From positions 429 through 64,428 of IMG/VR virus record IMGVR_UViG_3300028138_000003: a DNA stretch of 64,000 nt. The stretch is one strand, 5' to 3'. A model generated the notes under the pieces. It saw nothing but the letters and a program-made list of their open reading frames with translations. It made no database searches and was not told the DNA's origin. A program made the translations under genes and the position numbers. Below, piece after piece: positions 3,682-58,523 of this stretch (position 1 is the stretch's first letter; the number at the start of each line of letters is the position of its first letter). Source of the stretch: a virus.

Positions 3682-4014
3682 TCAGGGGCACTTGGTTAGG
3701 TTCCCACCCGGAGCGATATAGATTGCTGTCGGGCAGCCGGCGTCGTTCGCCTTCAGGGTGCTTTGGTCCCATGAGCTACTTACCAGTAAGAGCGTCGCGC
3801 TCTGCGCGCTCGGCGTTGATGACGACGAGGTCGTGCTCGGCTGCGCTGATAAGCTGTTCGACAGCGCTTTCAACGCTTCCGGCAGCTGGAGCTGCTCCCG
3901 ATGCGGGGGCGGCGGGACCTGATAGCACGGGGCAGCTACCGTGAGTGGCTTGGTAGTTGCGCAACCTGCGAGTAAGGTCATCAGCGTTGGTAGCAGCAGC
4001 TTTGAGCTGTTCAT
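3682..4014 (-). CDS. o-spanin (Rz1-like lipoprotein), embedded in and extending past Rz
   Basis: The +1-frame ORF starts MNSSKLLLPTLMTLLAGC (signal peptide with LAGC lipobox). A proline-rich stretch follows (PPPPHREQLQLP). Confidence 0.55.
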   Translation of the reverse strand: MNSSKLLLPTLMTLLAGCATTKPLTVAAPCYQVPPPPHREQLQLPEALKALSNSLSAQPSTTSSSSTPSAQSATLLLVSSSWDQSTLKANDAGCPTAIYIAPGGNLTKCP

Positions 4015-4249
4015 CCTGTTTCTCCTGAATTGTGGCGAGAGCGATCCCGTACTCTTTGTCGAGCCGGTCGATTGTCTCTTGGGCCTCGGCCTTGGTTTTC
4101 TCGCTGGCAGCTTGCACGGCAGCCACTTCATGCGCTGCGCCGATGCGGCGCTCGTGCACGGTGTAACAGCCGAAGGCTGTCAGCAGCGCGACGATCGCGC
4201 CGACGTACAGCCAGTCTTTCAACGGGATCAAATTCAACAGTGCTAACAT
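3776..4249 (-). CDS. i-spanin (Rz-like)
   Basis: The N-terminal TM segment is LALLNLIPLKDWLYVGAIVALLTAF. It is followed by a charged coiled-coil periplasmic domain. An o-spanin ORF is embedded in another frame. Confidence 0.7.
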   Translation of the reverse strand: MLALLNLIPLKDWLYVGAIVALLTAFGCYTVHERRIGAAHEVAAVQAASEKTKAEAQETIDRLDKEYGIALATIQEKQDEQLKAAATNADDLTRRLRNYQATHGSCPVLSGPAAPASGAAPAAGSVESAVEQLISAAEHDLVVINAERAERDALTGK

Positions 4250-12242: not shown

Positions 12243-12631
12243 AGGATAACTCCCGCCGCACGTGCGGCTCCTTCAGTAATGAAAAGATGCGCGGTCGCAG
12301 GGCGCCCGCAGAAAACGCCACTCTCTACAACACAGTACGTGTCGCTAAGCGTGACCGTCTCAGAATCGCCACCGGGCCCGAATGGCGGCGCCACCTGGCC
12401 AGGAAACTGGCGCGCTGGCCGCCAGCCTTGGCCGCCAGCATAGCCGCCGAATTCCTTAGACAAGCCGGTATACGTGGCGCGACTGCCGCCGGACCAATAG
12501 CGACCGGACAGTGTGACGCTATCGGTAACCGCCAGCAGAATCGAATGCTTGGCGTACGCGGGCAGTGCAGCGCGCACTATCCGGAGGGCGGCAGCGTATT
12601 CGGCAGTGTGCTGTTTCTTTTTAAGGATCAT
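12239..12631 (-). CDS. hypothetical protein, 130 aa
   Basis: The internal ATG at 12631 has a GGGAG RBS. The product begins MILKKKQHTAEY. ATGA coupling is present. Confidence 0.4.
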   Translation of the reverse strand: MILKKKQHTAEYAAALRIVRAALPAYAKHSILLAVTDSVTLSGRYWSGGSRATYTGLSKEFGGYAGGQGWRPARQFPGQVAPPFGPGGDSETVTLSDTYCVVESGVFCGRPATAHLFITEGAARAAGVIL

Positions 12632-12819
12632 GGGCGATACTCCCTCAGTGCGCGCACAAGGCGCCAATTGGCACGGCGTGCAGCGGTTGCGTACTTACTG
12701 GCGCAATCAATCCACGCGGCACGCACCCCGCCGGCGCTATACGCCGCATAAAACTGTGCGTTGCGAGCACGGCGCAGAAATTCATTGCGCTCCCGAAAGG
12801 ATGCGTATGCGTTGGTCAC
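12628..12819 (-). CDS. hypothetical protein, 63 aa
   Basis: The GTG start at 12819 has an AGGAG RBS 8 nt upstream. It overlaps the upstream stop (GTGA). Confidence 0.35.
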   Translation of the reverse strand: MTNAYASFRERNEFLRRARNAQFYAAYSAGGVRAAWIDCASKYATAARRANWRLVRALREYRP

Positions 12820-13100
12820 GGCAGCGGCTCCTGTAATGTGGCCACGTGGCCAGCCCGCGCGGCATCGTGCAAGCCGGACCATTCGAACCAGTGCGCATCG
12901 CACAGCTGCAGCCATGCGACGTCGGTATGCGCGCAGCCGCAATCAAGCACGGCGCAACCCTCAGAAGAGCGCACGCGCGCCGTAGTGTTGCCATTCAATA
13001 GCCGTACGCTCATGAGCGCACCGCCAGCGCGCAAGCAACCACGACGCCCCAAGCGAACAGTAAGAGTGCAGTCATTGTCAGTCTCCAGTGTGAACAGCAA
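12816..13100 (-). CDS. hypothetical Cys-containing protein, up to 94 aa
   Basis: ORF-track call. The start is uncertain. Confidence 0.35.
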   Translation of the reverse strand: MLFTLETDNDCTLTVRLGRRGCLRAGGALMSVRLLNGNTTARVRSSEGCAVLDCGCAHTDVAWLQLCDAHWFEWSGLHDAARAGHVATLQEPLP

Positions 13101-13134
13101 CCAAAGCGCACCATGGGCGTGCGCTTTCGCGTTG

Positions 13135-13338
13135 CTACTCGCCCTGTATCCAAGCTGAGTGTTTATCGATGCTGGCGGCTAAGCGGCGCGCGACCGTCTC
13201 TCCGCCGATTGCGCCAATGGTTGCGGCAAGCGTGCCGTCGTTGTTGTACAGCTTGACGTTCCAGACAACGGAATTGTCGGATAGCGTTTCGCTGACGGCG
13301 CGGGCGTAGGTGGCGTCTGTTTCTCTTGTGCGTGGCAT
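13135..13338 (-). CDS. hypothetical protein, 67 aa
   Basis: The ATG at 13338 has a GAGGA RBS. The product begins MPRTRETDATYARAV. Confidence 0.4.
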   Translation of the reverse strand: MPRTRETDATYARAVSETLSDNSVVWNVKLYNNDGTLAATIGAIGGETVARRLAASIDKHSAWIQGE

Positions 13339-13401
13339 TGTCCTATCCTCTTGTGAGTGGCAACCAAAGCGCACCGTGGGCGTGCGCTTTCGCGTTGCGG
13401 C

Positions 13402-13632
13402 TCAGCCGCCCATCATGGCGGTGACTATCTGGCGCAATTCCACGTCGGTGAGCGGCGCGCCAAGTTCCGCAGTCGCAGCCGCATCGCTGAAGCAACCACT
13501 ACGGTCATTCCACTCAGCGAACGCGATCAGCAGCGCACGCGATGCGGTATCGATGGGAAAGCTTGCCGTGGCCGCATCGCATGTGCACGTCGGACAGTGC
13601 CGGTCTAAATCCTCATAGTCTGGCGTAGTCAT
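13402..13632 (-). CDS. hypothetical acidic protein, 76 aa
   Basis: ORF-track call. A CPTCTC motif is present. Confidence 0.4.
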   Translation of the reverse strand: MTTPDYEDLDRHCPTCTCDAATASFPIDTASRALLIAFAEWNDRSGCFSDAAATAELGAPLTDVELRQIVTAMMGG

Positions 13633-13646
13633 TAGATGCGCTCCTT

Positions 13647-13967
13647 TCAGTAGTCCACGCCAGCAGCGCGCGCTTGTGCGGGCGTCATGCGCATCATTTC
13701 GGCGACTGTCGGAGCGTGCTTGTCGTTTTCGTATATGCCCTTACGCGGGCCTTGTGACTCGCTCAGAAGCTTGGCGCAAGCCTTAACGATGCGCGCAACG
13801 GTATCGTCGGCGCCGTCGCGGTCTACTGCGACGTCCGAATAGCCAAGCACGGCAAGAGCGGCACGCGCCAAGGCTAGATCGCCGGTCACAGCCTTGTCGG
13901 CTGTCTGGAGTAACAGACGCGCCACGTTAGTGGCGGCGGTCACGGTATGTAGGGACTTGGTCAACAT
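13647..13967 (-). CDS. hypothetical protein, 106 aa; first gene of the early leftward operon
   Basis: AGGAG lies 8 nt upstream of the ATG at 13967. It sits immediately downstream of a strong sigma70-like promoter. Confidence 0.5.
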   Translation of the reverse strand: MLTKSLHTVTAATNVARLLLQTADKAVTGDLALARAALAVLGYSDVAVDRDGADDTVARIVKACAKLLSESQGPRKGIYENDKHAPTVAEMMRMTPAQARAAGVDY

Positions 13968-13982
13968 GGTCTGTGCTCCTAT

Positions 13983-14037
13983 CAATTGATGTACTACAAC
14001 AATTGCATTTTTATCGTATATCAATTGCGTCTGTCAA
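13983..14037 (-). promoter_or_regulatory. early promoter (minus strand) with three CAATTG palindromes
   Basis: On the minus strand: a perfect -35 TTGACA (plus 14032-14037), an 18-nt spacer, and -10 TAAAAAT (plus 14007-14013). CAATTG occurs at 13983-13988, 14000-14005 and 14022-14027, between the RBS and the -35. Confidence 0.55.
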
Positions 14038-14099
14038 CGTCAGCCGACGAACGGTCGTCGTTTTCCGGCAAGTGTGTCGGAAATGGGCAAGTTGAGAAA

Positions 14100-14460
14100 A
14101 TAAGCCAGCCCGCCAGACCCTCTAATGCGCGCGCCTGCAAGCCTTCAGCCGCCCTCCAGCCGCCCTTACTCCCCCGATCCGAGGGTGACTGGCTTGCAGG
14201 GGGAGAGCCTATCGGTAGCATGCTTTCCGGCTGATGGGTCCTTCCTGGAGCTCGAGGCCTGCCTCGAGTCAGCCCCTTTAGGCCGCGCCCCTCCGCGCCT
14301 GGCTTCGTCTGAGACGAACGTAATTTCCGCGCGCGTCAGGGGCCTGCAAGCCATAAGCCCTTAAAATTTATAAAATTATTCCCACGCGCGCCTCAGGTCT
14401 GTCGTTTTCAGGCATGCCGGTCGTTTTTAGATATCGCGCCTCGCGTGCGCGTCAGGTATC
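14100..14460. repeat. repeat-rich non-coding region (origin / regulatory candidate)
   Basis: CCTGCAAGCC occurs at 14134-14143 and 14343-14352, and its reverse complement at 14191-14200. There is a tandem CAGCCGCCCT x2 (14146-14166). A 7-bp perfect inverted repeat TTCGTCT-g-AGACGAA lies at 14304-14318. A GCGCG..TCAGG motif recurs at ~14331, ~14388 and ~14446 (about 57-bp spacing). An AT-rich island TTAAAATTTATAAAATTATT lies at 14361-14380. Confidence 0.5.
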
Positions 14461-14643
14461 CTGCCGCCAAGACTGGAGGCCGGCATAACCGCCGAGCGCT
14501 CGAGAATGCAAGGCGGCGCGGGCTAGGATCCTCCGCGTTAGCCCGGGCTCGAGCTGGAAGCGGCCGCCGTCGAGGGCACATAGCAGTGAGGGCTGATAGC
14601 GCAGCCCGAAGGTTCTATGACCCGAAGCCTCCCAGTCTTTTAA

Positions 14644-14718
14644 GCGCCCGTCGTTGCGGGTCAACGCGCCGGTCTTCCAAACCGTGCAGATGGGGTTCGA
14701 TTCCCCACGGTCGCTCCA
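14644..14718 (+). tRNA. tRNA-like gene, probably tRNA-Gly(TCC), non-canonical
   Basis: Length is 75 nt with encoded CCA. The acceptor stem GCGCCCG/CGGTCGC is 6 of 7 paired. T-arm is TGGGG-TTCGATT-CCCCA. The anticodon loop is CTTCCAA. The D-arm is short and there is one mismatch in the anticodon stem. Confidence 0.4.
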
Positions 14719-14771
14719 TACTCAGCGGCGTAGTCTATAGCCGTCAGCGTTACCCCGGCGCGGGAATACCG

Positions 14772-14846
14772 GGGCGTCTTCTGGCAAGTAGCTCAGCGGT
14801 AGAGCAGCCGGCTGTTAACCGGCCGGTCGCTGGTTCGATTCCAGCC
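14772..14846 (+). tRNA. tRNA-Asn(GTT)
   Basis: Clean cloverleaf. Acceptor stem TGGCAAG/CTTGCCA. D-arm GCTC-AGCGGTA-GAGC. Anticodon arm GCCGG-CTGTTAA-CCGGC. T-arm GCTGG-TTCGATT-CCAGC. Discriminator G and encoded CCA. Confidence 0.8.
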
Positions 14847-14947
14847 TTGCCAGCCAACCTCATCACACTCCCCCCGCCGAGAGCTTGCGGCTTGCCGGCC
14901 ATCTGTGTATCCATACAGTGCGGCGCGAATTCCCATAGTGGGACTCC

Positions 14948-14992
14948 TGGTTCGCGGTTCCGTAGGCCGGCGGGGGCGGCTTTCCGTGCAAT
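14948..14992 (+). other. GC-rich stem-loop between the tRNAs and the first late gene
   Basis: GCCGGCGGGGGCGG...CCCCTCCGCCGGC has an 8-bp perfect outer stem plus more. It is preceded by the palindrome TGTATCCATACA (14910-14921). No U-tract follows. Confidence 0.35.
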
Positions 14993-15035
14993 GCGGTCCC
15001 CTCCGCCGGCCGACTTTCAGGAGAAGGAGGCATCG

Positions 15036-15152
15036 TGAGCGCAGTGGTTAAGGCATTCGTAGCGAAGCAGCTGGCATGGGCCAAGGCTAACAAGGTCGCC
15101 CTCTCCGTCGGAGCGGTGCTCGGCCTCTTGCTGGCCAAGGTGCTCTGATGAC
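15036..15152 (+). CDS. small membrane protein, 38 aa
   Basis: GTG start after AGGAGAAGGAGG. The product is VSAVVKAFVAKQLAWAKANKVALSVGAVLGLLLAKVL. Its stop overlaps the next ATG (TGATG). Confidence 0.4.
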
Positions 15153-15336
15153 GGCCCCCTACGGCACCAACGTCCCGACGGCTCGCCCGCGCAAGCGGAC
15201 GATCGACCTGCGCTCGCTCTCCTTCGGGGTGAGCGGGCCCGAGGTGCCCTACCCCGTGTATCAGTTCAGCGGTTATCGGATCCGGTGGGAGTACCCCCAG
15301 CACAATCCGTTCCTGCACGTTCCGCCGTACTTCTAG
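15148..15336 (+). CDS. hypothetical protein, 62 aa
   Basis: ORF-track call. Coupled by TGATG. Confidence 0.4.
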   Translation: MTAPYGTNVPTARPRKRTIDLRSLSFGVSGPEVPYPVYQFSGYRIRWEYPQHNPFLHVPPYF

Positions 15337-15351
15337 CCCTCAGGAGGGGCC

Positions 15352-16362
15352 GTGGGTAATATTCTCGGCACCAGTTTCGCCCAGACGGGGTTCAGCTGGG
15401 ACCCGAACATCTCGCCGAACAACGAGTCGTTTGCCGCGGCGGTGCGTGCCGTTACTACCCGGCTGGGCCTCGGCACTGGCGGCGGGGGTGGCGGCGGGAC
15501 GCTGTCCAACCCGACGAACAAAGTCTCGACGATCGCCACCAACGGAACCTCGACTGCGGGGATGCGCTCGGACGGCGCGCCGGCCATCGATCAGGCCATG
15601 GCCCCGGTCTGGACGGGGGTGCACAGCTTCGGAACGGACATCCAGTTCACGGACATCACGACGCCCTCGGCTCCGTCGAACGGGACGCTGAAGCTGGCGA
15701 GCGTCGCCTCGCCGGCGGCGAATATCAGCCAGCTCACGGTATTCGATGCCTTCGGCGCGAGCATCATGATCGGCTACGAGAACCACATGCTGGTGTACAA
15801 CGCCGGCACGGCGACGTTCACCCGGGGCAATCTGGCCTATATCAACGGGGGCCACGGCAACCAGCCGACCATCGGGTACGCTCAGGCGAACGATCCCTCG
15901 ACCATGCCGGCCGTCGGCTATGCGCAGTACAACATCGACCCGGGCAGCTTCGGGGTCATCCACGTCTACGGGCTGGTGTCGGGCAACACGAACGCATTCA
16001 GCGTCGGTGATCGGCTCTTCGTCTCGGAGACGACGCCCGGGGCGCTCACGAACACGGTGCCGGCGAGCGGCAAGATCTCGCAGGAAGTCGGCTTCGTGAC
16101 TGTCTCCGCCGGCGGCTTCGGGGGCAAGCTGATCGTTGGCGTGCAGACCGAGGAGCACGCCGTCCTGCAGCCCGAGGCCACGCTCTCCACGGGGGACCTC
16201 TTCTACGCCAGCGGCACGCACTCGGTGAACCGGCTCGCCATTGGCACCAGCACGACGCAAGTCCTGACCGTCAGCGCAGGTATCCCTGCGTGGGGCTCTG
16301 TGCCAGGATATGCTGCGTTCGCTTTCGATAGCGTCTTCTACTCACAAGCAGGGGGCATCTAA
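15352..16362 (+). CDS. tail fibre protein (set 1, proximal)
   Basis: GTG start after AGGAGG. Gly/Thr-rich. Contains MRSDGAPAIDQAMAPVWTGVHSF, a motif repeated twice in the 32136-34064 fibre. Confidence 0.6.
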   Translation: MGNILGTSFAQTGFSWDPNISPNNESFAAAVRAVTTRLGLGTGGGGGGGTLSNPTNKVSTIATNGTSTAGMRSDGAPAIDQAMAPVWTGVHSFGTDIQFTDITTPSAPSNGTLKLASVASPAANISQLTVFDAFGASIMIGYENHMLVYNAGTATFTRGNLAYINGGHGNQPTIGYAQANDPSTMPAVGYAQYNIDPGSFGVIHVYGLVSGNTNAFSVGDRLFVSETTPGALTNTVPASGKISQEVGFVTVSAGGFGGKLIVGVQTEEHAVLQPEATLSTGDLFYASGTHSVNRLAIGTSTTQVLTVSAGIPAWGSVPGYAAFAFDSVFYSQAGGI

Positions 16363-16838: not shown

Positions 16839-18136
16839 TGTCCGGCATCACGGGCGAAATAGGCTACAAGGTCCACGCTGCCGGCGCGGCCACACCGCGC
16901 GTCAACACACTCAACGTCATCGGGACGCTGAGCATGATGGGCACGATGACCGTAGACGGCTTCGTGGTAATCGCGCCGACGGGCACCACCGGCACCGACA
17001 CCGCGGCGCTCCGGGTTGTAGCTAACCGGCGGGCGCCCGCGATCCTTTGCACCAGCTTCGGCAACGCGGCCATCGGTGCCGCCTACGCGCTGCAGGTTCA
17101 GGGCACGGGGGTAACCGGGTTCTCGTACGGCCTTGAGATATTCGCCGGGAGCAACAGCTCGGATCAGGCCATCGATGTCGGCCCGGCTTCGCAGAGCTCG
17201 CTACGGTTCTTCCAGATATTCGGTGACGGCTCCGGCAAAGCCGGCCCCCAGACCGCCAGCAACAAGGGCATCTCTTGGGGCACCGGCGGTGCGGTCAAGA
17301 TCGACGCCACCAATAGCGTGTCTAACGGCGTGGCGCTGACAGTCAACGCTGCGACGGGCACGGATATCTTCAACGCCAACATCAACAACATCCGCTCGTT
17401 CGCCATAACCGCGCAGGACGGCGCCGTGGTCTTGGGCACGGGCACCGCGTATGCCTGGGGCACGGGCACGCACTACCCGGTAATCCAGCTGGCTGGCGTT
17501 GGAGCGCTATACGGCACAGGCACCGCTGGTGTCGTGCTGCTGGGCGGCGGGCTTTACTACAACGGCACCAGCTACATCTACGGGCAGGCCGGCACAGGGA
17601 TCATAGTGTCCGCGGTGAACGGCAGCCTGTCGGTGCAGTGCGTCGCCACTGCAGGTACGGCCAACGGCACGGCGGCGACGACGGCGGTGTTTGTTATCGC
17701 CGGCACGGTCACTTCCAACAGCATTCAGGGCTACGGCCCCAACGCCGCCGCGCTCACGGACATGACGCCGGACACCATAACTTTCGGAGTGACGCTGACC
17801 GGAGTGACACCATCGGTCACCGGCACGATGACGGCGAAGAAGATGGGCAACCTCGTCACCGTCTACTGCAACTCGCTGCTTGGCACCAGCAACGCTGCCA
17901 CTTGCACGATCACTGGCGTGCCGAATGCGCTGGTACCGACGCAGCGGCAGCTCATACCAATCAACATGCAGAACAACGGCGCCAACATACTGGCCTACGT
18001 GGACCTGGCCAGCACCACCTTCACGCTGGCGGTTAACTCGGTCTCCGGCACGTTCAACGGGTATAACTCCGCCGGCTTCACGGCCAGCGGGCAGAAGGGC
18101 CTTAGCCTGAGTTCCTTCACCTACGCACTCACATGA
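16838..18136 (+). CDS. tail fibre protein (set 1, distal)
   Basis: Gly/Thr-rich. Its C-terminal module (AALTDMTPDT...TFTLAVNSVSGTF) is similar to the C-terminus of the 32136-34064 fibre. Confidence 0.6.
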   Translation: MSGITGEIGYKVHAAGAATPRVNTLNVIGTLSMMGTMTVDGFVVIAPTGTTGTDTAALRVVANRRAPAILCTSFGNAAIGAAYALQVQGTGVTGFSYGLEIFAGSNSSDQAIDVGPASQSSLRFFQIFGDGSGKAGPQTASNKGISWGTGGAVKIDATNSVSNGVALTVNAATGTDIFNANINNIRSFAITAQDGAVVLGTGTAYAWGTGTHYPVIQLAGVGALYGTGTAGVVLLGGGLYYNGTSYIYGQAGTGIIVSAVNGSLSVQCVATAGTANGTAATTAVFVIAGTVTSNSIQGYGPNAAALTDMTPDTITFGVTLTGVTPSVTGTMTAKKMGNLVTVYCNSLLGTSNAATCTITGVPNALVPTQRQLIPINMQNNGANILAYVDLASTTFTLAVNSVSGTFNGYNSAGFTASGQKGLSLSSFTYALT

Positions 18137-18921
18137 CGAGCGTACCCACAATTCCTGCTCGGTTCCCCGACCCGCCCGATAGCCGGGCGCCGGCGAAGAT
18201 CGTCAGCCGCTGGGAGCTGTTCCTCGGCGAGATCGCCACCGGCGTGTCCGTGCCCGACGCGATGCTCAAGTGCCTCATCAAGCGGGCCGAGATTCAGGCC
18301 ATGACCAACCAGCCTTCCGAGCGGAAGCGCTACCGGGATGCCCAGCTTGCAGGCCTGCGGTGCGAGTACTCAGAGATGGACCTCGAGGATTTCTTCGATC
18401 GCGTGGCCACTGGGAAGAAAGTGGTCGAGTCGTTCGTCGAGGTATTCGGTCGCGAGCCTAGGGCGAGCTTCTATCGACTGCTGCGCGACGACCCCGACCT
18501 CGAGGAGCGCTATCAGAGTTCGCTCAAGACCAAGGCCATGCTGGAGATGGAGAAGTCGCTGGAGATCATCGACGACGACTCCAACGACACGCTGCCGGGA
18601 CCGAAGGGCGGGGAGATCCCGAACATGGCCGCGGTGCAGCGATCGCGCCTGCGCTTCGATGGCCGGCACAAGCTCGCCTCCACGTGGTTCCGCCGGGTCT
18701 TCGGCGAGGAGAAGAAGCAGGTCGACGTCAACGTGAACATCGACCTCGCTGCCCGAATTCAGGAAGGCCGCATCCGCGCCAAAGAGCGCAAGGTTGCTAT
18801 TACCGCGCAAGAGCGTAAAGATGCCATCGACGCCTCATTTGCTCCAGTGCCGTCCCCGGAGCCGGATACGAAGTGGATGGATGATCCGGAAGTCTCAACC
18901 GTTTGGAGGGAAGAATCATGA
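18133..18921 (+). CDS. putative terminase small subunit
   Basis: It lies immediately upstream of the terminase-large-subunit region. The N-terminus is HTH-like, followed by a charged coiled-coil middle. The assignment is by position and composition only. Confidence 0.4.
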   Translation: MTSVPTIPARFPDPPDSRAPAKIVSRWELFLGEIATGVSVPDAMLKCLIKRAEIQAMTNQPSERKRYRDAQLAGLRCEYSEMDLEDFFDRVATGKKVVESFVEVFGREPRASFYRLLRDDPDLEERYQSSLKTKAMLEMEKSLEIIDDDSNDTLPGPKGGEIPNMAAVQRSRLRFDGRHKLASTWFRRVFGEEKKQVDVNVNIDLAARIQEGRIRAKERKVAITAQERKDAIDASFAPVPSPEPDTKWMDDPEVSTVWREES

Positions 18922-19547
18922 AGACCGTGTGGGAGGTTTGCTGGGGAGTGGCGCTTGGTTTGGCTACGATTCTTGTGCTTAAGGCCTGTGTGGCGACAGT
19001 TGGCGCAGAGCCCGACGTCAGCACGCCGGATGCGATAGGCATCCTCATGGGGCAGGTCATCACTCCGGATGTGTCCAAGTTTCCCGCGTACGACACGCTC
19101 GAGGAAGCCGCGGTGCATGCGGCCGAGCGGCTATACAAGTGCTCGCAGGTCTACGAGTGCTCGAGCGTCATCGTGAAGCGAACCTCCGACGGCAAGTACA
19201 TCAACGGCCCGGCGCGCTCCGACTACTCCGGCGACAGCGTGCAGGTGAATACTTCGCATCCTGTTGGCAGCACAATGGTCGCATCGGTGCACTCGCATCC
19301 GTGCAATCCCGACGCCCACTATGTCTCGTTCTTCTCGCCAGAGGATCTGATCAGCGACATCTCGCGCAGGCAGATCGGAATCATGGTCGACTTCTGCACC
19401 GGCGACGTTCACGAGTTCGATCCGAGCAGAGACGTTGCCGCCGCTGAAGAACTGGAAAACGATCCGGGCACGTACTCCACGCATGGCCGCATCGTCGGGC
19501 ATATCGAAGTCAGCAAAGAGACCGTCGAGCCTCACGTAGGATTCTGA
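18918..19547 (+). CDS. secreted protein with HSHP motif, 209 aa
   Basis: GGAGGG RBS. N-terminal signal peptide MKTVWEVCWGVALGLATILVLKACVATVGA. Conserved-looking segment VASVHSHPCNPDAHYVSFFSPEDL. ATGA-coupled between the candidate TerS and TerL. Confidence 0.5.
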   Translation: MKTVWEVCWGVALGLATILVLKACVATVGAEPDVSTPDAIGILMGQVITPDVSKFPAYDTLEEAAVHAAERLYKCSQVYECSSVIVKRTSDGKYINGPARSDYSGDSVQVNTSHPVGSTMVASVHSHPCNPDAHYVSFFSPEDLISDISRRQIGIMVDFCTGDVHEFDPSRDVAAAEELENDPGTYSTHGRIVGHIEVSKETVEPHVGF

Positions 19548-21040
19548 TGGCAGCAGTAGCGAAGTCAGGCGACACCGCTCCTGCGCGTGCTGCGCAGGGC
19601 GGCTTCAATCCGTCGCAGTCCGAGGCCGAGCTGGCCGAGGACATGATCCGGTTCTACGACGACCCGGTCGGCTTCGTCTATTACGCGTTCAACTGGGGCC
19701 ACGGCGATCTCGCGGATCAGTCCGGGCCCGACGAGTGGCAGATCAAGTTTCTCGACGAGATTGCGGCGAAGCTGCGAGGTGATCCGGATGGGAACGTCAG
19801 AGAAGCAACCGCCAGCGGACACGGAATCGGTAAGACAGCTTGCACAGCGTGGCTTGTGCTGTGGGCTATGTCGACTCGCCCGCATCTATCGGGTGTTGTC
19901 ACAGCAAACACTATGTCCCAGCTGTCCACTAAAACGTGGAGAGAGCTGGCGCTCTGGTATAAGCGCCTCGTCAACCGTCACTGGTTCAAGTGGTCCGCCA
20001 CGAAATTCTGGCACGTTGACCACCCTGAGACGTGGTTCACCTCCGCCGAACCCAATACTGAGCACAACTCCGAAGCCTTCGCTGGACGGCACGCGTACTA
20101 CAAGCTCATCATATTCGATGAGGCTTCTGCGATACCGGACAAGATTTGGGAGGTCACTGAAGGAGCGATGACGGATCCGCGGTCCCTCTGGTGCGTCTTC
20201 GGGAACCCAACGAAGAACACGGGCCGGTTCAAGGACTGCTTCGAGCATGACAGTGCGCGGTGGGGCACGCGACACATCGACAGCCGCACCTGCAAGATGA
20301 CCAACAAGGCGGAACTGGATGAGTGGATCAAAGCATACGGCATCGACTCGGACTTTGTTAGAGTACGAATTCTTGGCTTATTCCCGCGATTCGGAGCCAT
20401 GCAGTTCATTTCGACTGAGTCAGTGGATCTCGCCATGCTCGGTGAAGTACCCTTTGAAGCCTACTGCCTGGTGCCTGTCGTGCTTGGTGTGGACGTCGCA
20501 CGTTATGGGGACGACAAATCCTGCATTGCCGTTCGCCAAGGCCGGAAGCTACATGAAATCCGGAAGTTCCGAGAACTGAACACGATGCAGCTGGCGGCGC
20601 AGATCGTCGCCTGCGGCAAGGACTACGGCGGCGCGGCGGCTGTATTCGTCGACGGCATCGGCGTCGGGGCCGGGGTGGTCGACCGGCTCCAGATGCTGGG
20701 CCACCCGGTCATCGAGGTCAACGGCGGCGCCGTGGCCTTCATGGAAACCCAGTTCTACAACAAGACCGCCGAGATGTGGTACCGGATGCGGGAGTGGATC
20801 AAGGGGTCCGATCTGCCCGCCAAAGACAGTGAGTTACGTCTCGCTTTGATCGGTCGAGAGTACTACTTCGACGACCGGGAGCGTATACGCTTGGAGAGAA
20901 AGCGCGATATGAAGAAGCGGGGACTGGCGTCCCCTGACGAAGCTGACGCCCTGGCCCATACTTTCGCGGAAGAGCTTGGTGACCTAGTGCGCAACAGCGT
21001 CGAGCCGGAAGATGAAAATTCCGTCGAACCAACGCATTAG
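19547..21040 (+). CDS. terminase large subunit
   Basis: Walker A ASGHGIGKT. Walker B LIIFDEAS. C-terminal nuclease motifs VLGVDVARYGDDKS and ASPDEADALA. Confidence 0.85.
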   Translation: MAAVAKSGDTAPARAAQGGFNPSQSEAELAEDMIRFYDDPVGFVYYAFNWGHGDLADQSGPDEWQIKFLDEIAAKLRGDPDGNVREATASGHGIGKTACTAWLVLWAMSTRPHLSGVVTANTMSQLSTKTWRELALWYKRLVNRHWFKWSATKFWHVDHPETWFTSAEPNTEHNSEAFAGRHAYYKLIIFDEASAIPDKIWEVTEGAMTDPRSLWCVFGNPTKNTGRFKDCFEHDSARWGTRHIDSRTCKMTNKAELDEWIKAYGIDSDFVRVRILGLFPRFGAMQFISTESVDLAMLGEVPFEAYCLVPVVLGVDVARYGDDKSCIAVRQGRKLHEIRKFRELNTMQLAAQIVACGKDYGGAAAVFVDGIGVGAGVVDRLQMLGHPVIEVNGGAVAFMETQFYNKTAEMWYRMREWIKGSDLPAKDSELRLALIGREYYFDDRERIRLERKRDMKKRGLASPDEADALAHTFAEELGDLVRNSVEPEDENSVEPTH

Positions 21041-38407: not shown

Positions 38408-41400
38408 ATGGCTGCTGCGGAAGACGCTCCGGCCGAACAACAACCTGCACGCCCAGCATACTGGGATGCCCCGATGGGCGAAGGCGCTCCCGCGCCGCAG
38501 CACGATGACGCCGCCTCCATGGGCCGGCAGTCTGTCGCGGGTCCCGACGCCGAGCAGGAAGCGCCCCGGCCCGCCTACTGGGACGCCCCGCTAGCCGCGG
38601 CGCCCGAGCCAGAAGCCAAGCCGACCGAGGCCCCCAAGCCCGCTGAGAGCACTTTCGGTACTGACGTTCTGACGGGCATCGGTGCGCGCGGCGCGCAGAT
38701 GTATCACGGCGCCAAGGAAGCCATGGCGAACCACCAATTCTCTTCAGCGCGCGAAGAATTCTACCGAACCATGGTCCTTGGCGACGCCGTCCGCGACGCG
38801 GGCAAGGCAGGCATCGCGCTTATCGACGACCCGGTGGTGCAGGAGATCTCCAAGCACGTAGGCATGCGCCCTGACCAGTTCGTCCGCGGATGGTACAACT
38901 ACGTCAACCTGTCCGAGGAAGAGAAGCAGAAGCGCCTCGGCGAGCTCCAGCAGCAGATGGTCGAAGCCACCGGCAACATCGCCGAGGCGTCGCACGGTCG
39001 CGCGCTGGCGGGGCAGGTGTCACGCGAGGCCATGCCGCGAGAACACCAGTTTGCCTACAAGGCCCTGACGATGGCCCCCGAGATACTGGGCGGGCTGGGC
39101 ATTTCCATGATCCCCGGTGGCCAAGCCCCGGCAGCTGCGATGTTCATGTCCGACTTCGGACTCACCAGCTACGCCCAAGCGCGCGACAGCGGCGCATCCG
39201 ACGACCAAGCCAAGGTCTACGGCGTGCTCTCGGGACTCGCGGCCACCGTGCCTCAGGTACCCGTCATGACGGCCCTGCAGAAGACCCCCGCGGCGCAGGC
39301 GCTTATGCAGACTGCGATCGGCAAGGTACTGGCCCAGAACGCCGCCGGCCGCGTAGCGGGCGCCGTAGCGAGCCAGGCGACCAACGAGTCGCTGGCGCTT
39401 GCCGTCCAGAACACCCTCCAGATCGCCATCGACAAGGGAGTGCTCGACCAGAACACCACCCTCGGCGAGGCGCTGCGCACGATCGGGGAAGGCGCGCTCA
39501 TGGGCGCGACCTTCGGCTCCTTCAGCGGCGCCGCACACAGCGGCGTCAACCGGCTGGTCAATGGTCCTGCCGCTACGCAGGGCCCGGGCGCCAGCGACGC
39601 AATGACCAACCGCATCCTCGAGGCGCAGCACACGGCCATGGACGCCGCGCAGACTGACGCCGAGCAGGCGGCCTTGGCGGCAGGCGGCGACGCCCTCGAC
39701 GGCAAGGTAGCCGCCATTCAGGCGAACGCCCATGTCAGTGCCGAGCACGACGCCGCGACAGTGCACCAGACCCGGGTCGAGGCAGCCCGCAAGTCGGCCG
39801 AGGACGAGATCGCCAACGCGCAGGCGGCCGAAGACGAGCTGAAGAAGGATCAGGACTTCGGCGCCGCCGAGCGGCAGGCCGGCAAGGTCGGCAATGCCCC
39901 GAGCGCCGATGAGGCGTTCGCCCAGCGTGAGCAGGAGGGAGCGCTCGCCGCCAAGCGCGCGGAGGCCCAGAAGGACCGGGACTTCGTTCCCGCCAAGAAC
40001 CAGGCGGCCGATCAGGATGTCGCGCAGGCAGAGGTCGCCGAGGAGAAGGGCGGGGCCTCACCGGCCAAGCCGACGCTGGCCGAGGCGCTGCCGACCGAGC
40101 AGGTGAACGCCCTGCAGGCACTTAGGGACCGGCTGGCGGCCCAAAGATCGGCCAACGAACCGGCCAAAGAGACTACCGCCGCGGAGCGCCTCAAGGCGCA
40201 GAACCCGGAGGACGACTTCCAGCAGCTGGGTCCTGAGGTGCCTAAAGCCACCAAGGGCGAGCCCAAGTTCATCCTCGACCCGCTCGACGAGCTAGCCCCG
40301 GGCAAGGCCAAAGCCCCGGAGAAGGCCCCAGAGCCGACCGAGGATGAGGAGGAGCCAACGGGCGGCCCGCCCCCCGTAACGGCGCAGACGCTGGCTGAGC
40401 GCCGGCAGCAGGCCTTGGACGCAGCTATGGCCGCCAAGGTCCGCGGTCCCGTGGCCAAGGAAGCTCCGATAGCCGCCCACCGGCGCGACCTCACCGCACT
40501 GGAGCGGGATCTGCCCGCGCCGGCGGAGGGCACCACGCGCCTGTGGCGCGGCGGCAAGAAAGGGGAAGGCCCGGGTGAGCAGACCCGCTTTACTGACGAT
40601 CCGGCCGGCATCGCGATGCCCTTCGAGAAGGGATACGGCGGTAGGCTGTTCCACGTAGACGTCCCCACCGACCAGTTGGAAGGGTACCGCAACGGGCCGA
40701 ACGACCCGGGTGCTTTCAACCTACCCAAAGAACTGGCTGCAAAGGCGCAGGACTCTCGCAATCTAGCCAAGGACAAAGTAGCGCCGAAGGGCGCGCTGGC
40801 CGAGCGCCGCGCCGCCGCCCGACCGCCGCTGCAGCAGGGGGTCGACCCGGCCGAGCGGCTCCTCGAGGAGCAGGTCAAGAAGGACGCCGACGCCGCCGCT
40901 GCCAACCCGAAGGGCAAGCGACCCCCGCTGGTGCAGGGCCGAGACCTTGCGGGGCCGCTGATTGAGGCGAAAGCTCGCAGAGACGCCGAAGCCGCGGCGG
41001 CGCCTACGACCACCGAAGAGGCCCCTGCCCCAGCTACCGCCGAGGCACCGATCGCCGCTCCTGAAGCCGCTGAAAAAGAGTCGGCTCGCATAGAAGCCGA
41101 ACGCACGCGCCCAACCGATGCCCTGTCGGCGGCCCCGGCCAAACCGAACCGGCTGGCCGCGATCCGCGCTGCGCAGGAAAAGCGCAACCAGCGCATCCGT
41201 ACCCCGGCCGAGCAGAGCATCATCGACGACCTGCGCGCGGGGCGGGCGAAGAAGGGCGAAGAGCCGCCACGCTTCGCCGACGTGCGGCAAGCCAATGTGT
41301 GGAAGCGCATGAACGACGAGCTTGCCGAGCACCGAGCGGCAATGGACAAGGCGCGCGACGCCGGAGACGTGCGCGGGTATAACGCCGCAGCAGACAAGTA

Positions 41401-44400
41401 CGACGCGCTGCACGAGCGCATCATGCGTGTCGCCAAGCAGCAGGCCGAGGCACCCCCGGAGCGTCCGGCGCCCGGCTCCAAGCCCACTGGCCGGTTCGCG
41501 GCAATCAAAGATCGCGCCGCCAACCTAAAGCGTTGGTTCGGCAAGAGCGTGGTCAAGAACGCCGACGGCTCGCCGAAGGTCGTATACCATGGCACCCCGG
41601 TGTGGGAGCGCAACGGCAAGAGTCTCGGAGACGTCACGAGCTTCGATCGCAATGCTGCCGGCAAGGCGCTGAACCGCACGCCAGGGATGGACGCCGTTGG
41701 CTCGTGGTTCACAGATAGTCCTGAGGGCGCGGGCGACTTCTCGGGTAGCGAAGGCGTAGTCTACCCAACGCACCTCAAGATCGAGAACCCGTGGCGCCCC
41801 ACGAGCTTCGACGAGTTCCTTGCCCGTGGCCGCAAGGCTGCCGGCCTGCCGCCCAAGGGCAATCCAATGGGCCGGTTCGATCCGCAGTACCTGCGCAACG
41901 AGCTGAAGAGGGCTGGGCACGACGGCATTATCTTCCCGAGCATGAAGATCGATGGCCGCGAGCAGCAGTACCACGTCGCCTTCGAGCCAGAGCAGGTGAA
42001 GTCAGCTGTCGGCAATAGTGGCGACTTCGATCCAGCCAATCCCGACATCCGCAGCAAGACGGCCGAAGAGAATATAGCCGAGGACATGGACCGCGCGACT
42101 AACCCGCGCATGACCAAGGACGAGGCGACCGAGCACCTCAAGCCGGTGCTCGCCAAGATCCACCCCGCGGTGGCCGCGCGCACGCACGTGCACGGCGACA
42201 AGAATGACGCACTGGCCCTGCCCGATAGCCAGCTGTCTGCGCGCACCAAGGAGCAGTTGCGCAACTACGAGGGCACGCCGGCGGGCCTGTACGACCCCGA
42301 CACGAACACTGTGCACGTCTTCGGCGACGGGCATCTGGCCAGCCCGACAGACGACGGACGTCCGGGCGGGCAGAGCGAAATCATCAAGACGCTGGCCCAC
42401 GAGTACACGCACATGGGTCTGCGTAACATATTGGGCGCCGACTATCGGAAGACCATGCTCGACCTCGCCAACAAAGTGAAGAATCGACAGCTCGCCAAGG
42501 ACCTCATCGAAGCGCGCGGATTCGACGTAGGCAGCGAGGAACACATGACCGCCCTTGGCGATGAGTACGCGGCGCACTTGGCCGAGGACGCCAACGCCGA
42601 TCCGGGCCTCTGGCGAACGGTCGTCGACGGCGTGCGGCGTGCGCTCCGCAAAGTCGGCTTGGTGCGCAACTGGACCGACGACGATATTCGCGATCTGGTA
42701 CGGCGCAACAACCCGATGCTAGGCGAGACCGATGCCGCGGCTCGAGCGGGCCTCGCGTACAAGGGCGACGTCCCGCGGTTCGCCGACAACAAGGCGACGG
42801 ACCACCAGATCGATCGCGATCTCGACCCGACGGATCCCAAGGCGATCCAGTACAAGCTGGCGCGCACTGTGGAAGAGCAGATGGACGCCAACCGGGGCTC
42901 GATCGACTCCCGCACAGCGTGGGACAACTTCGTGGCGCAGGCCCAGAAGACAGGACGCAACTTGGCCGAGTGGGGCCGGGGCACCAATGACAACAAGCGG
43001 CTGGGCTGGATCGGGCTTCGCAACATGATGGACTTCATGCGCAAGGACCTAATGCCGGACCTCCATGGCTTCATCGACGACCACGACGCGATGGATGGCA
43101 TGCGTGGGCGCCTCGTCAACGAGGGCGCGGACATCGCGCGCAAGTGGTCGAAGTGGCAGGCCAAGCAGGACGACCGAGGCTGGGGCTTGTCCGAACTCAT
43201 GCACTCCTCGACGCTGCTGGGGCACGACGCCTCGAAGCCGTACGAGTCGCAGTACACCAAGGAAGAGCTGGCCGAGTCGCCCGACAAGCGTCAGGACGAT
43301 CGGTATCAGCGCGCCCTGCATGCAGGGCTGAAGAAGACTTACGACTCCGACGCTCTCGGCTCCGAAGGCCGCGAACTCTACAACACGGTGCGCGACCACT
43401 ACGCGACTGCCCGGCAGCGCATCTTCGACGCGCTCACCCGGCGTATCGAGGAGACTGGCGCAGACGAGAACACGAAGAAGCAGCTCATGGCGGAACTCCG
43501 GCAGCGGTTCGAATCTGGCCGGGTCAAGGGCGTGTACTTCCCGCTGCAGCGCTTCGGCAACCGCTGGGCCCGCGCGATGGACGCCGAGGGCAACCACGTC
43601 GCCTTCTCTCGCTTCGAGAACAAGGACGACCAAGACCAGTGGCTCAAGCACATGCGCGATCAGGGGCTGGAGGTCGACAAGGGTCAGCAGATCGATTCGA
43701 AGTCTGAGATGGAGCGCATCGATCCCGACTTCGTGAAGAAGGTCATGTCGCTGGCGCACGACGCGGACGGCTCCGGCGAGCTGGAGAAAGAGATCTGGCA
43801 GACCTACCTCAAGGCCATGCCTGAGATGTCGATGCGCAAGCACTTCATCATGCGGCAGGGGCGGCTCGGCTTCTCGCAGGACGCGCTGCGCGCGTTCGCC
43901 TACAACTCATTCCATGGCGCTCACCAGCAAGCACGGCTGGAGTATGGCAATAGACTAGATACTCGACTAGCAAATGTGAAGAAGCAGGCCGAGGCGCTGG
44001 CGACCGTAAGTGCCCAGAATCCCGGCGATAAGCTTGCAGATAAGAACTCCGAGTGGGGCGCTGCGCTGGCCAAAGAACTAGAACAGCGACTAGATTGGAT
44101 CAAGAATCCGCGGTCCTCGCCGTGGGCGTCGAACCTCACTAAGTTTGGCTTCCTCTGGTACCTCGCCGCGGCACCGGCGACGGCGCTGCGCATCTCGCTG
44201 CAGAACACCATGCTGGCCCAGCCACAGATTGCCCGGCACTTCGGGCAGATCGGGGCGACCAAGGAACTGAGCAAGGCGGTGCTGCAGTGGGCCGGCGCCC
44301 GCGGCAAGCTCTCCGACAAGCTCCGCGGCGATGAGCGCGCGGCCTTCGAGCGCGCGGCCGACATGGGGATCTTCTCCAACACGAACACGACCATGCTGGC

Positions 44401-58250: not shown

Positions 58251-58523
58251 ATGAAGGGTCTTTTCTTTATCGCGATCATTCCGCAGGGCAACCGTGCCAA
58301 CATCCAGACCGGGATCGTCAAGGACAAGCTCGGCGAGACTCATCTGCTTCTCGAATTCGATGGCAACAAGTTCAAGTACAAGCGCACGGTCCCCGTGGCG
58401 CAGCTTGAGGCCTTCTCGTTCTTCGACACGCAGGCTGAGCAGCGTCTCGCTGTCGATGAGCTGCTGGCGCAGAACCAGGCCGTGGCCGACGGGGGCATCG
58501 AACTCACCGACCTTACTCAGTAA
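58251..58523 (+). CDS. hypothetical protein, 90 aa, encoded antisense to the replication operon
   Basis: AGGAGA RBS lies 6 nt upstream. It has its own promoter. Its 3' end converges on the primase gene stop, overlapping by about 10 nt. Confidence 0.5.
   Translation: MKGLFFIAIIPQGNRANIQTGIVKDKLGETHLLLEFDGNKFKYKRTVPVAQLEAFSFFDTQAEQRLAVDELLAQNQAVADGGIELTDLTQ

Follow-up and report, generated by a model that had tools for sequence, protein, structure and literature searches.

The window, by which we mean the whole stretch of 64,000 nucleotides (nt) analyzed here, is nearly all of a phage contig of ~64.4 kb recovered from soil metagenomes. Its source is an uncultured soil podophage of that size, and identical contigs are present in several JGI, ENA, and Logan samples. 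The window has a single large intergenic region at which genes diverge, a non-coding control region of 1,067 bp lying between a leftward arm that is presumably early and a rightward arm that is presumably late. A sequence-only reading of the window had placed a divergent control region here, and the two arms bear this out, with small genes leading to the left and the TerS, TerL, portal, and capsid genes to the right. That reading had ended the region at 14640 and given a G+C content of 65%; the intergenic region runs to 15034, its right-hand ~400 bp beyond 14640 holding two tRNA genes and, in the final 180 bp upstream of the first late gene, a conserved leader hairpin, all of which had been left out, and the window is ~62% G+C. 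The motifs listed in that reading are all present and non-random, so that the observation holds, and the region is under functional constraint. With modest confidence, we read it as an early/late control region that combines an early promoter and its operators with a rightward unit of promoter, leader, and terminator-like hairpin.

13968-15034, 1,067 bp: non-coding control region between the divergent arms
13967 down to 1, plus 64000 down to ~47 kb, minus strand: leftward arm, starting with small genes
15035 to ~46.7 kb, plus strand: rightward arm, encoding small membrane-type proteins, TerS, TerL, portal, capsid, and a DarB-like virion protein
14194-14366, 173 bp: conserved non-coding core
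14217-14224: core palindrome AGCATGCT, which reads AAGCATGCTT in relatives
14236-14244: core element GGGTCCTTC
14251-14257 and 14262-14268: core 7-bp inverted repeat, CTCGAGG and CCTCGAG
14260-14266: core element TGCCTCG
14328-14352: repeat copy R1 joined to GGGGCCTGCAAGCC

Homologous regions and a conserved core

Homologous intergenic regions were reached by three independent routes, namely the left gene, the right genes, and a DNA pattern. The 336-aa protein of the right flank led to the contigs L007 and L008, and the 106-aa protein of the left flank to L009-L013 and to the more distant L014-L018, which have the first early gene in common with the window and not the intergenic sequence. The conserved second late protein (62 aa) led to L029-L049, and a degenerate DNA pattern, built on the first four lineages, brought in L019-L028 from metagenomes and IMG/VR. 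The core pattern had no match in 185,579 bacterial and archaeal genomes, and a prophage or attP feature was rejected because the pattern is absent from every bacterial genome searched. Scans of IMG/VR with exact conserved blocks or with the 336-aa protein gave no matches, and the only DNA-level match among deposited phages was the tRNA-Asn, with no close cultured relative. Homology extends across ~10 distinct close lineages, plus a more distant group (L038-L049), and this comparison divides the region into modules.

The 173-bp core was delimited by a profile hidden Markov model (HMM) built from eight lineages, which finds the core once in the window and once per related contig, and which also matches L029, L032, and, more weakly, L036, none of them chosen by DNA pattern. 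Identity to the window is 46-72% within the core vs. 23-51% for the 150 nt upstream (left). Conserved elements comprise the palindrome (G)GAAGCATGCTT(CC), GGGTCC(T/C)TC, a GCTCGAGC-type palindrome, (T/C)GCCTCG, CTTTAGCC, CC(T/A)GG, and TTTCC..CGCG..GGGGCC, and the 7-bp perfect inverted repeat pointed out in the sequence-only reading was found exactly as described. In L036 the first palindrome is swapped for CCGGGAGTCCCGG with its flanks kept, and in L027 the palindrome is duplicated. The distant contigs L038-L049 carry a conserved palindrome, (A)ATGAGTCTCAT, ~190 to 300 nt upstream of the late gene, at the position that AAGCATGCTT holds in the window group. The succession of AAGCATGCTT, CCGGGAGTCCCGG, and ATGAGTCTCAT suggests a family of binding sites with diverging specificity. 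Across the window GCATGC is not enriched (30 copies vs. 38 expected).

The core holds no reading frame common to the lineages. One small open reading frame (ORF; GSML...GP..) was considered and dropped, being broken by stops in the window and L009 and by frame shifts in L007 and L021, and the block GGAGCTCGAG is conserved in different frames. RNAalifold gave consensus energies of just -8.6 (plus strand) and -5.3 kcal/mol (minus strand), and single-sequence folds were not significant (z-scores of -1.1 and -0.25). A scan of 13900-15100 with the Rfam 15 covariance models at E values up to 5 returned only the two tRNAs. A sigma-54 or extracytoplasmic function (ECF) promoter in the core was rejected on inspection of the sequence, the spacing not fitting. 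Given the lack of a common frame, of an RNA-structure signal, and of an Rfam match, the core appears to act at the DNA level, most likely as a protein-binding platform for an early-to-late switch. Together with the specific leader elements described below, it is without a described counterpart.

Leftward promoter, rightward leader, and cargo slot

The features next to the leftward arm are:

13647-13967, minus strand: first leftward-arm gene, 106 aa
13979-13976, minus strand: its Shine-Dalgarno (SD) sequence, GGAG
13983-13988: CAATTG box 1, upstream of the SD in the 5' untranslated region (UTR)
14000-14005: CAATTG box 2, over the probable transcription start
14022-14027: CAATTG box 3, in the promoter spacer
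14007-14037, minus strand: sigma-70-like promoter, with TTGACA at 14037-14032, an 18-nt spacer, TAAAAA at 14013-14008, and T at 14007
14044-14055: upstream element CCGACGAACGGT, part of the dyad CGACGA-ACGG-TCGTCG
from 14057: upstream element GTCGTTTTCCGGCAAG (element pair 14044-14079), repeated at 14401-14423 (family D1)

The ORF and frame of the first leftward gene were checked, and the JGI gene calls on identical contigs agree. Its N-terminus, MLTKSLHTVTAATNVA, is invariant in 25 homologs (P0011-P0046) that are elsewhere just 42-79% identical, and the constraint acts on the peptide because the DNA changes there are synonymous. The AlphaFold model is helical, with a predicted local distance difference test score of 78; neither the sequence nor the fold of the protein had a match in the PDB, and tblastn matched nothing among deposited phages. 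A Cro- or CII-like regulator was considered and rejected, the only hit being a sub-threshold CII match (E 0.0057, 17 vs. 26 bits) with no match in fold. The protein may be a host-takeover factor.

Upstream of this same gene, a -35/-10 pair occurs at the same place in five lineages, as follows.

Window: TTGACA, spacer 18, TAAAAA
L007: GTGACA, spacer 18, TAAATT
L011: TTGACG, spacer 17, TATAAG
L021: TTGACA, spacer 17, TATAAG
L029: TTGACC, spacer 17, TACTGT

The leftward promoter is supported because its position is kept in these five lineages, and transcription probably starts near 14001. Judged as a sigma-70 promoter, the window has a proper -35 hexamer, an acceptable 18-nt spacer, and a -10 hexamer matching at four of six positions, with no T at position 6. 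The near-consensus promoter of the sequence-only reading therefore stands for TTGACA, the spacer, and the conserved position, and falls short at TAAAAA, which lacks the final T, and in the negative promoter scan considered below. Beyond the promoter, the 12-mer CCGACGAACGGT is identical in L007, reverse-complemented in L020 and L026, and present with one mismatch in L025.

Three CAATTG boxes were said to be interleaved through the promoter, and they were found there, at 13983, 14000, and 14022. The hexamer is not enriched in the window overall (11 observed vs. 10.7 expected); three copies within 45 bp nevertheless make a real local cluster (~3e-4, Poisson estimate). In L007, box 1 is exact, box 2 reads CATTG, and box 3 is missing. 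L011 has TAATTG-N9-CAATTG in the 5' UTR, L026 has ACAAT-N4-ATTGT in the spacer, and L029 has three copies of TTTGATA, one at the -35, one at the -10, and one upstream of the SD, so that box sequences are lineage specific and their positions are kept. Because the sequences vary and the positions stay, the boxes are candidate operators of diverging specificity, and in the window they form what an operator array should contain, namely multiple dyad-symmetric sites overlapping a promoter. They may thus be operators of the leftward promoter, as had been proposed. What speaks for that proposal is the retention of position across lineages; what speaks against it is that no cognate regulator was found, eleven other early ORFs that were scanned having no helix-turn-helix or ribbon-helix-helix match in Pfam or PHROGs, and that an RNA alternative exists. 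Boxes 1 and 2 can pair as a 6-bp stem in the 5' UTR (-6.2 kcal/mol), which L011 keeps through a U-G pair. A role for CAATTG as a methylation site was rejected, the phage methyltransferase being a C5-cytosine enzyme and the motif not being depleted.

Toward the rightward arm, the region continues with the following features.

14134-14200: inverted pair CCTGCAAGCC / GGCTTGCAGG enclosing a tandem 11-mer (14142-14166), window specific
14328-14340, 14385-14397, and 14444-14456, plus strand: repeats R1, R2, and R3, CG(C/T)GCGC(G/C)TCAGG (family D2)
14363-14382: A/T island TTAAAATTTATAAAATTATT, partly palindromic, then CCCACGCGCGCC; the only 20-mer in the window with 20 of 20 A/T
~14458-14865, plus strand: cargo insertion of ~405 bp, right after R3
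14644-14715, plus strand: tRNA-Gly(UCC)-like gene with encoded CCA
14782-14856, plus strand: tRNA-Asn(GTT)
14885-14913 or 14892-14919, plus strand: candidate late promoter, TTGCGG-17-TATCCA or TTGCCG-16-TACAGT
14932-14942, plus strand: small leader hairpin CCCATAGTGGG, overlapping the conserved box
14940-14950, plus strand: conserved leader box GGGACTCCTGG
14962-15014, plus strand: GC-rich leader hairpin with a 12-bp lower stem, a small upper stem, and the loop UGCAAUG, then GACUUUC
15020-15029 (SD) and 15035 (GTG start), plus strand: first late gene, 20 nt downstream of the hairpin

The strongly paired element of this side is the leader hairpin. Close lineages have a GC hairpin of 45 to 55 nt ending 10 to 35 nt upstream of the SD, with energies of -28 to -37 kcal/mol and z-scores of -2.0 to -5.1 in seven lineages (-35.9 kcal/mol in the window). 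RNAalifold recovered 17 pairs from the alignment, with compensatory double changes at 10 of them, and 92% of alignment cells are paired, compared with 78% in shuffles (none of 500 reaching the observed value) and 32-55% in slid controls. The upper stem carries the conserved 7-nt loop UGCAA(U/C)G. Because G-U and U-G pairs of the hairpin occur only when the plus strand is read, selection has acted on a rightward transcript. The element thus has the stable GC-rich hairpin, under selection for pairing, that is expected of a terminator.

Canonical intrinsic terminators lie at the equivalent position in distant relatives (L038 346-365, L042 876-899, L048 719-740), 30 to 60 nt upstream of the homologous late gene and with no space for a promoter after them. 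About 100 to 115 nt upstream of the terminators, these relatives have good sigma-70-like promoters, TTGACA-18-TGCAAT (L048) and TTGACT-18-TATTCA (L038). Since the distant relatives combine a terminator with an upstream promoter, the order of promoter, leader, terminator, and late operon would be ancestral, and the window hairpin is best described as derived from, or acting as, a terminator. A TTGC.. element downstream of the slot is common to all close lineages. In this group, a pair of the form TTGCGT/TTGCCC-17/18-TA(T/C)A(C/T)N stands at the same distance from the hairpin in the window, L007, L027, L020, L021, L011, and L009, and includes the candidate late promoter of the window, which we propose by inference only. 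Between this promoter and the hairpin, (G)ACTCCTGG is present in eight of nine close lineages, and L027 reads CCCTTTGCAGGG, keeping the stem of the small hairpin through an A-U to U-A change.

The cargo insertion was recognized by aligning the window with L007 and L008 and is missing from L007. It contains 185 nt of unknown sequence, the tRNA-Gly(UCC)-like gene, and the tRNA-Asn. ARAGORN calls the tRNA-Asn, which scores 71.4 bits in Rfam; the tRNA-Gly-like gene scores 31.1 bits (threshold 29), carries single mismatches in three of its stems, is not called by ARAGORN, and may be a decaying or unusual tRNA. In the same slot, L021 has a gene of the endonuclease VII family (HNH-type, 117 aa, PF02945, E 2.7e-11), between its A/T island and leader, and L025 carries an ORF of unknown function. 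Insertions thus recur at this slot, a hotspot, and because all of its cargo is on the plus strand it would be transcribed rightward from an upstream promoter.

A second candidate for that upstream promoter is the A/T island. Each of the eight close lineages has an AAAATTT(A)TA-type island with (A)CGCGCGC 0 to 10 nt after it; the island is a perfect palindrome in L025 (GAAATTTATAAATTTC) and only 10 to 12 bp long in L020, L021, and L027, and the right arm of distant relatives likewise opens with A/T islands. It is a candidate -10 region of a rightward promoter or a candidate DNA-bending site, and because no -35 is conserved there a bending site and an activator-dependent promoter are equally possible. 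The motif GCGCG..TCAGG had been reported to recur at about 57 bp, and CGYGCGCSTCAGG indeed has exactly three matches in 64 kb (14328, 14385, and 14444), spaced by 57 and 59 bp. Each copy is preceded by an A/T-rich stretch, namely TAATTT for R1, the A/T island for R2, and TTTTTAGATAT for R3, so that as many as three tandem rightward promoters, each a -10-like stretch with a GC-rich discriminator or initial transcribed sequence, might be present. L007 is the only lineage to share all three copies, spaced by ~117 and 75 bp; L027 retains an R1-like copy, and the other lineages have only CGCGCGC after the A/T island. The island itself was confirmed at the length first described, 20 bp, and it is unique in the window. 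A 14-bp palindrome, GTTCCACGTGGAAC, was also found in L007, L009, L011, L020, L026, L029, and L032, and not in the window, lying upstream of the A/T island in some lineages and downstream of it in others.

Of the remaining short repeats, CCTGCAAGCC is present in the three exact copies and both orientations first reported (14134 plus, 14191 minus, and 14343 plus). The tandem seen beside it is real, its unit being an 11-mer in 2.3 copies rather than a 10-mer. The stretch 14134-14200 folds no better than shuffled sequence (z-scores of -0.2 and +0.6), and other lineages have short tandems of their own at this position, L009 carrying CGTATGCCC three times. Allowing up to one mismatch, CCTGCAAGCC has 24 copies in the window vs. 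7.5 expected, mostly following the local direction of transcription, an excess that could come from codon bias or from an oriented signal. The near-identical contigs L020 and L026 differ in their tandems, GCGCAGTGA occurring three times vs. twice and GTTAAACC twice vs. three times, and their leftmost genes are unlike; these differences indicate recent recombination at the region.

Elsewhere in the window, the leftward arm encodes many small proteins, a C5 methyltransferase, a D5-like primase-helicase, a family A DNA polymerase, a gp2.5-like single-stranded DNA-binding protein (SSB), and an exonuclease. The best match of the DNA polymerase, from Bordetella BPP-1-like phages, is ~35% identical. 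Individual features are:

18133-18921, plus strand: Sf6-like small terminase TerS
19547-21040, plus strand: large terminase TerL
38408-45625, plus strand, late arm: 2405-aa DarB-like protein, presumably a virion protein
58513-61002: D5_N/Pox_D5 primase-helicase (D5/P4-alpha-like)
3776-4249, minus strand: Rz-like spanin gene, on the leftward arm and remote from the late operon
13097-13135 and 13360-13398: the only long internal repeat of the window, 39 bp at 97% identity, among small leftward genes

The 39-bp repeat could be a repeated promoter or terminator. In L014 and L017, the control region (~1.3 kb) differs from that of the window, is lower in GC, and contains four to six copies of a 20-bp palindrome, GTGAGTTCTCTAGAACTCAC, as well as a block GGGTAGGGTA...GTGCGGTAC that is common to L016.

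Origin, RNA, and packaging explanations

The sequence-only reading took the repeats for iterons and the region for a plausible replication origin. An origin would have the repeats bind an initiator, for example the primase-helicase, with the A/T island as the unwinding element; it could coexist with the promoters, and transcription might activate it, as it does the T7 primary origin. This is the largest non-coding region and sits at the divergence point of the arms, its A/T island is unique in the window and conserved, and lineage-specific short tandems whose copy number differs between close relatives adjoin the conserved core. The phage also encodes a D5_N/Pox_D5 primase-helicase, of a family (D5/P4-alpha) that binds iterated origin sites in P4. 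A perfect DnaA box, TTATCCACA, occurs in the equivalent region of L007 (88-96), and two occur in L041 (~2380-2460), directly after A/T islands; in the window, however, no such box was found even with one mismatch allowed. Iterons would be three or more direct repeats of ~17 to 22 bp at regular, conserved spacing, and nothing of the kind is present. The 57- and 59-bp spacings of the R copies are out of helical phase and are not conserved in L007, most other lineages do not carry the 13-nt motif as a repeat, the tandem units are 9 to 11 bp in just two or three copies, and the A/T island shrinks to 10 to 12 bp in several lineages. The best-conserved parts are long exact sequences rather than repeats, and cumulative GC skew, proposed as a check, has no extremum at 14 to 15 kb. 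An origin is thus unsupported, weakly disfavored, and unlikely here, and repeats plus an A/T island between divergent arms do not suffice to call one.

Two further explanations concern the core. One is a non-coding RNA made from the core, with or without the leader, either a small RNA of the phage or an antitermination RNA acting in cis like HK022 put; such an RNA would work through its sequence and tertiary contacts and not through simple helices. Strong conservation without a conserved ORF fits this, as do the position upstream of tRNA genes that are themselves necessarily transcribed and the RNA-level selection on the plus strand of the downstream hairpin. The low consensus energies and z-scores of the core and its lack of an Rfam match do not, nor does L009, which on inspection fails to preserve the helix proposed for the window; moreover, key elements are perfect DNA palindromes whose loops are too short for RNA folding. 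We regard a non-coding RNA as improbable. Even less probable, to the point of being a very slim chance, is a pac- or cos-like packaging or terminus signal for the Sf6-like small terminase, with genome ends in the region. Contigs assembled by MEGAHIT, JGI, and Logan break here far more often than expected (also L032, L033, and L038-L040). Breaks in many independent assemblies, including L005 and L006 at 14516 and 8 of 21 IMG/VR contigs, with others in L007, L008, L010, L012, L013, L019, L023, L024, and L028, would suit genome ends, as would the location upstream of the packaging genes. However, pac sites of the P22 and Sf6 type lie inside the small terminase gene, the break points do not coincide at one nucleotide but are scattered, and contigs of 60 to 64 kb cross the region intact. 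Ends of the window population fall inside blocks identical between the window and L007 types (L023 at 14300, L019 at 14403), and the two types come from overlapping sample sets. Because the ends are scattered and lie in blocks shared by co-sampled relatives, the breaks probably reflect branching of the de Bruijn graph rather than physical ends, and genome termini in the region were rejected.

A control-region model and known systems

The early/late control region that we favor would work as follows. Leftward, a host sigma-70-type promoter (TTGACA-18-TAAAAA) would drive an operon of small early genes. Three CAATTG boxes over the spacer, start, and 5' UTR would serve as operators for some regulator, the two transcribed boxes perhaps also forming a 5' UTR stem. 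Rightward, at least one promoter (the A/T island with CGCGCGC..TCAGG, triplicated here; TTGCGG-17-TATCCA at 14885) would feed a leader consisting of the cargo slot, the conserved box GGGACUCCUGG, and then the stable covarying hairpin upstream of the first late gene. The 173-bp core upstream of this unit would be the protein-binding platform for the early-to-late switch, and late-gene expression would proceed by read-through or antitermination at the hairpin. Dependence on read-through is suggested because the hairpin is the positional equivalent of the intrinsic terminators of relatives.

Several results weigh against this model. Homology, conservation, covariation of the hairpin, the tRNAs, the cargo slot, and the terminators of relatives were observed, whereas the transcription starts and ends assigned within the region are predictions from the sequence, as are the direction of regulation, the roles as operators and in antitermination, and the timing of the two arms. 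A consensus promoter scan of 12500-16000 found no promoter on either strand, the left -10 has no conserved final T, and the spacing of the late promoter pair is not kept in L025, L029, and L032. At the hairpin of the window, an intrinsic-terminator scan finds nothing and the GACUUUC tail has only three U, compared with the at least four to five expected of a U-tract, so that the hairpin could instead be an mRNA-stabilizing or processing stem. The ORFs scanned yielded no recognizable regulator, sigma factor, RNA polymerase, or Q-like protein. As for the core, the search pattern itself dictated ~22 of the 34 invariant columns in four lineages, although the pattern-independent L029, L032, and L036 confirm most of the invariant columns.

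A bolder version of the model, which we hold to be unlikely, joins the core, A/T island, GGGACUCCUGG box, and leader hairpin into an undescribed late-gene switch, in which a dimeric phage protein would recognize the palindrome and either load onto the host RNA polymerase or modify it, so that it reads through the leader hairpin into the packaging and structural genes. Such a switch would follow Q-like logic, but its protein would be unrelated and its DNA and RNA would be differently built, and its leader would double as a hotspot for tRNAs and homing endonucleases. Whichever version applies, these data provide a conserved regulatory map for an uncultured family of soil phages without a close cultured relative. 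If the hairpin is a leader terminator, late timing would be set by control of read-through through some factor, and the lineage-variable palindrome would offer a handle for finding that factor by co-variation.

Several parts of the region have partial parallels in well-studied phages. The D5_N/Pox_D5 primase-helicase and the short repeats in a non-coding region recall ori and crr of P4, but the repeats here are few, poorly phased, and lineage specific. Similarly, the three A/T-then-GC repeats next to an A/T island resemble the T7 early region (A1-A3 and the primary origin), and the family A DNA polymerase, gp2.5-like SSB, and exonuclease are also T7-like. Unlike T7, no phage RNA polymerase was recognized in the ORFs scanned, and the repeats are far shorter, with spacing that is not conserved. 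On the leftward side, short palindromic boxes over the spacer, start, and early transcribed region, keeping their positions as their sequences vary, are reminiscent of OR and OL of lambda and P22. Those sites are 17 bp rather than 6 to 10 bp, and the window differs further in that neither a CI-type nor a Cro-type protein was found, no DNA-binding fold is recognizable in the first gene product, and two of the boxes possibly form an RNA stem.

The closest analogy for the rightward side is with lambdoid phages, in which stx cargo lies in the late region under pR' and Q carries RNA polymerase past a terminator (PMC6266700); in one Stx2 phage, stx2a is surrounded by three tRNA genes (PMC7946995). 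Unlike the lambdoid unit of PR', qut, and tR', the cargo of the window lies before the hairpin and not after it, the hairpin has lost most of its U-tract, no Q-like gene was recognized, and there is no sequence similarity; the core and A/T island are without a lambda counterpart. Nevertheless, both place a promoter, a short leader, and a strong hairpin directly upstream of the late operon (lysis, packaging, and structural genes in lambdoids), and, as in Stx phages, foreign cargo has entered the late region, here tRNAs or an endonuclease VII gene. The region is therefore best described as a familiar kind of element in a new family of phages.

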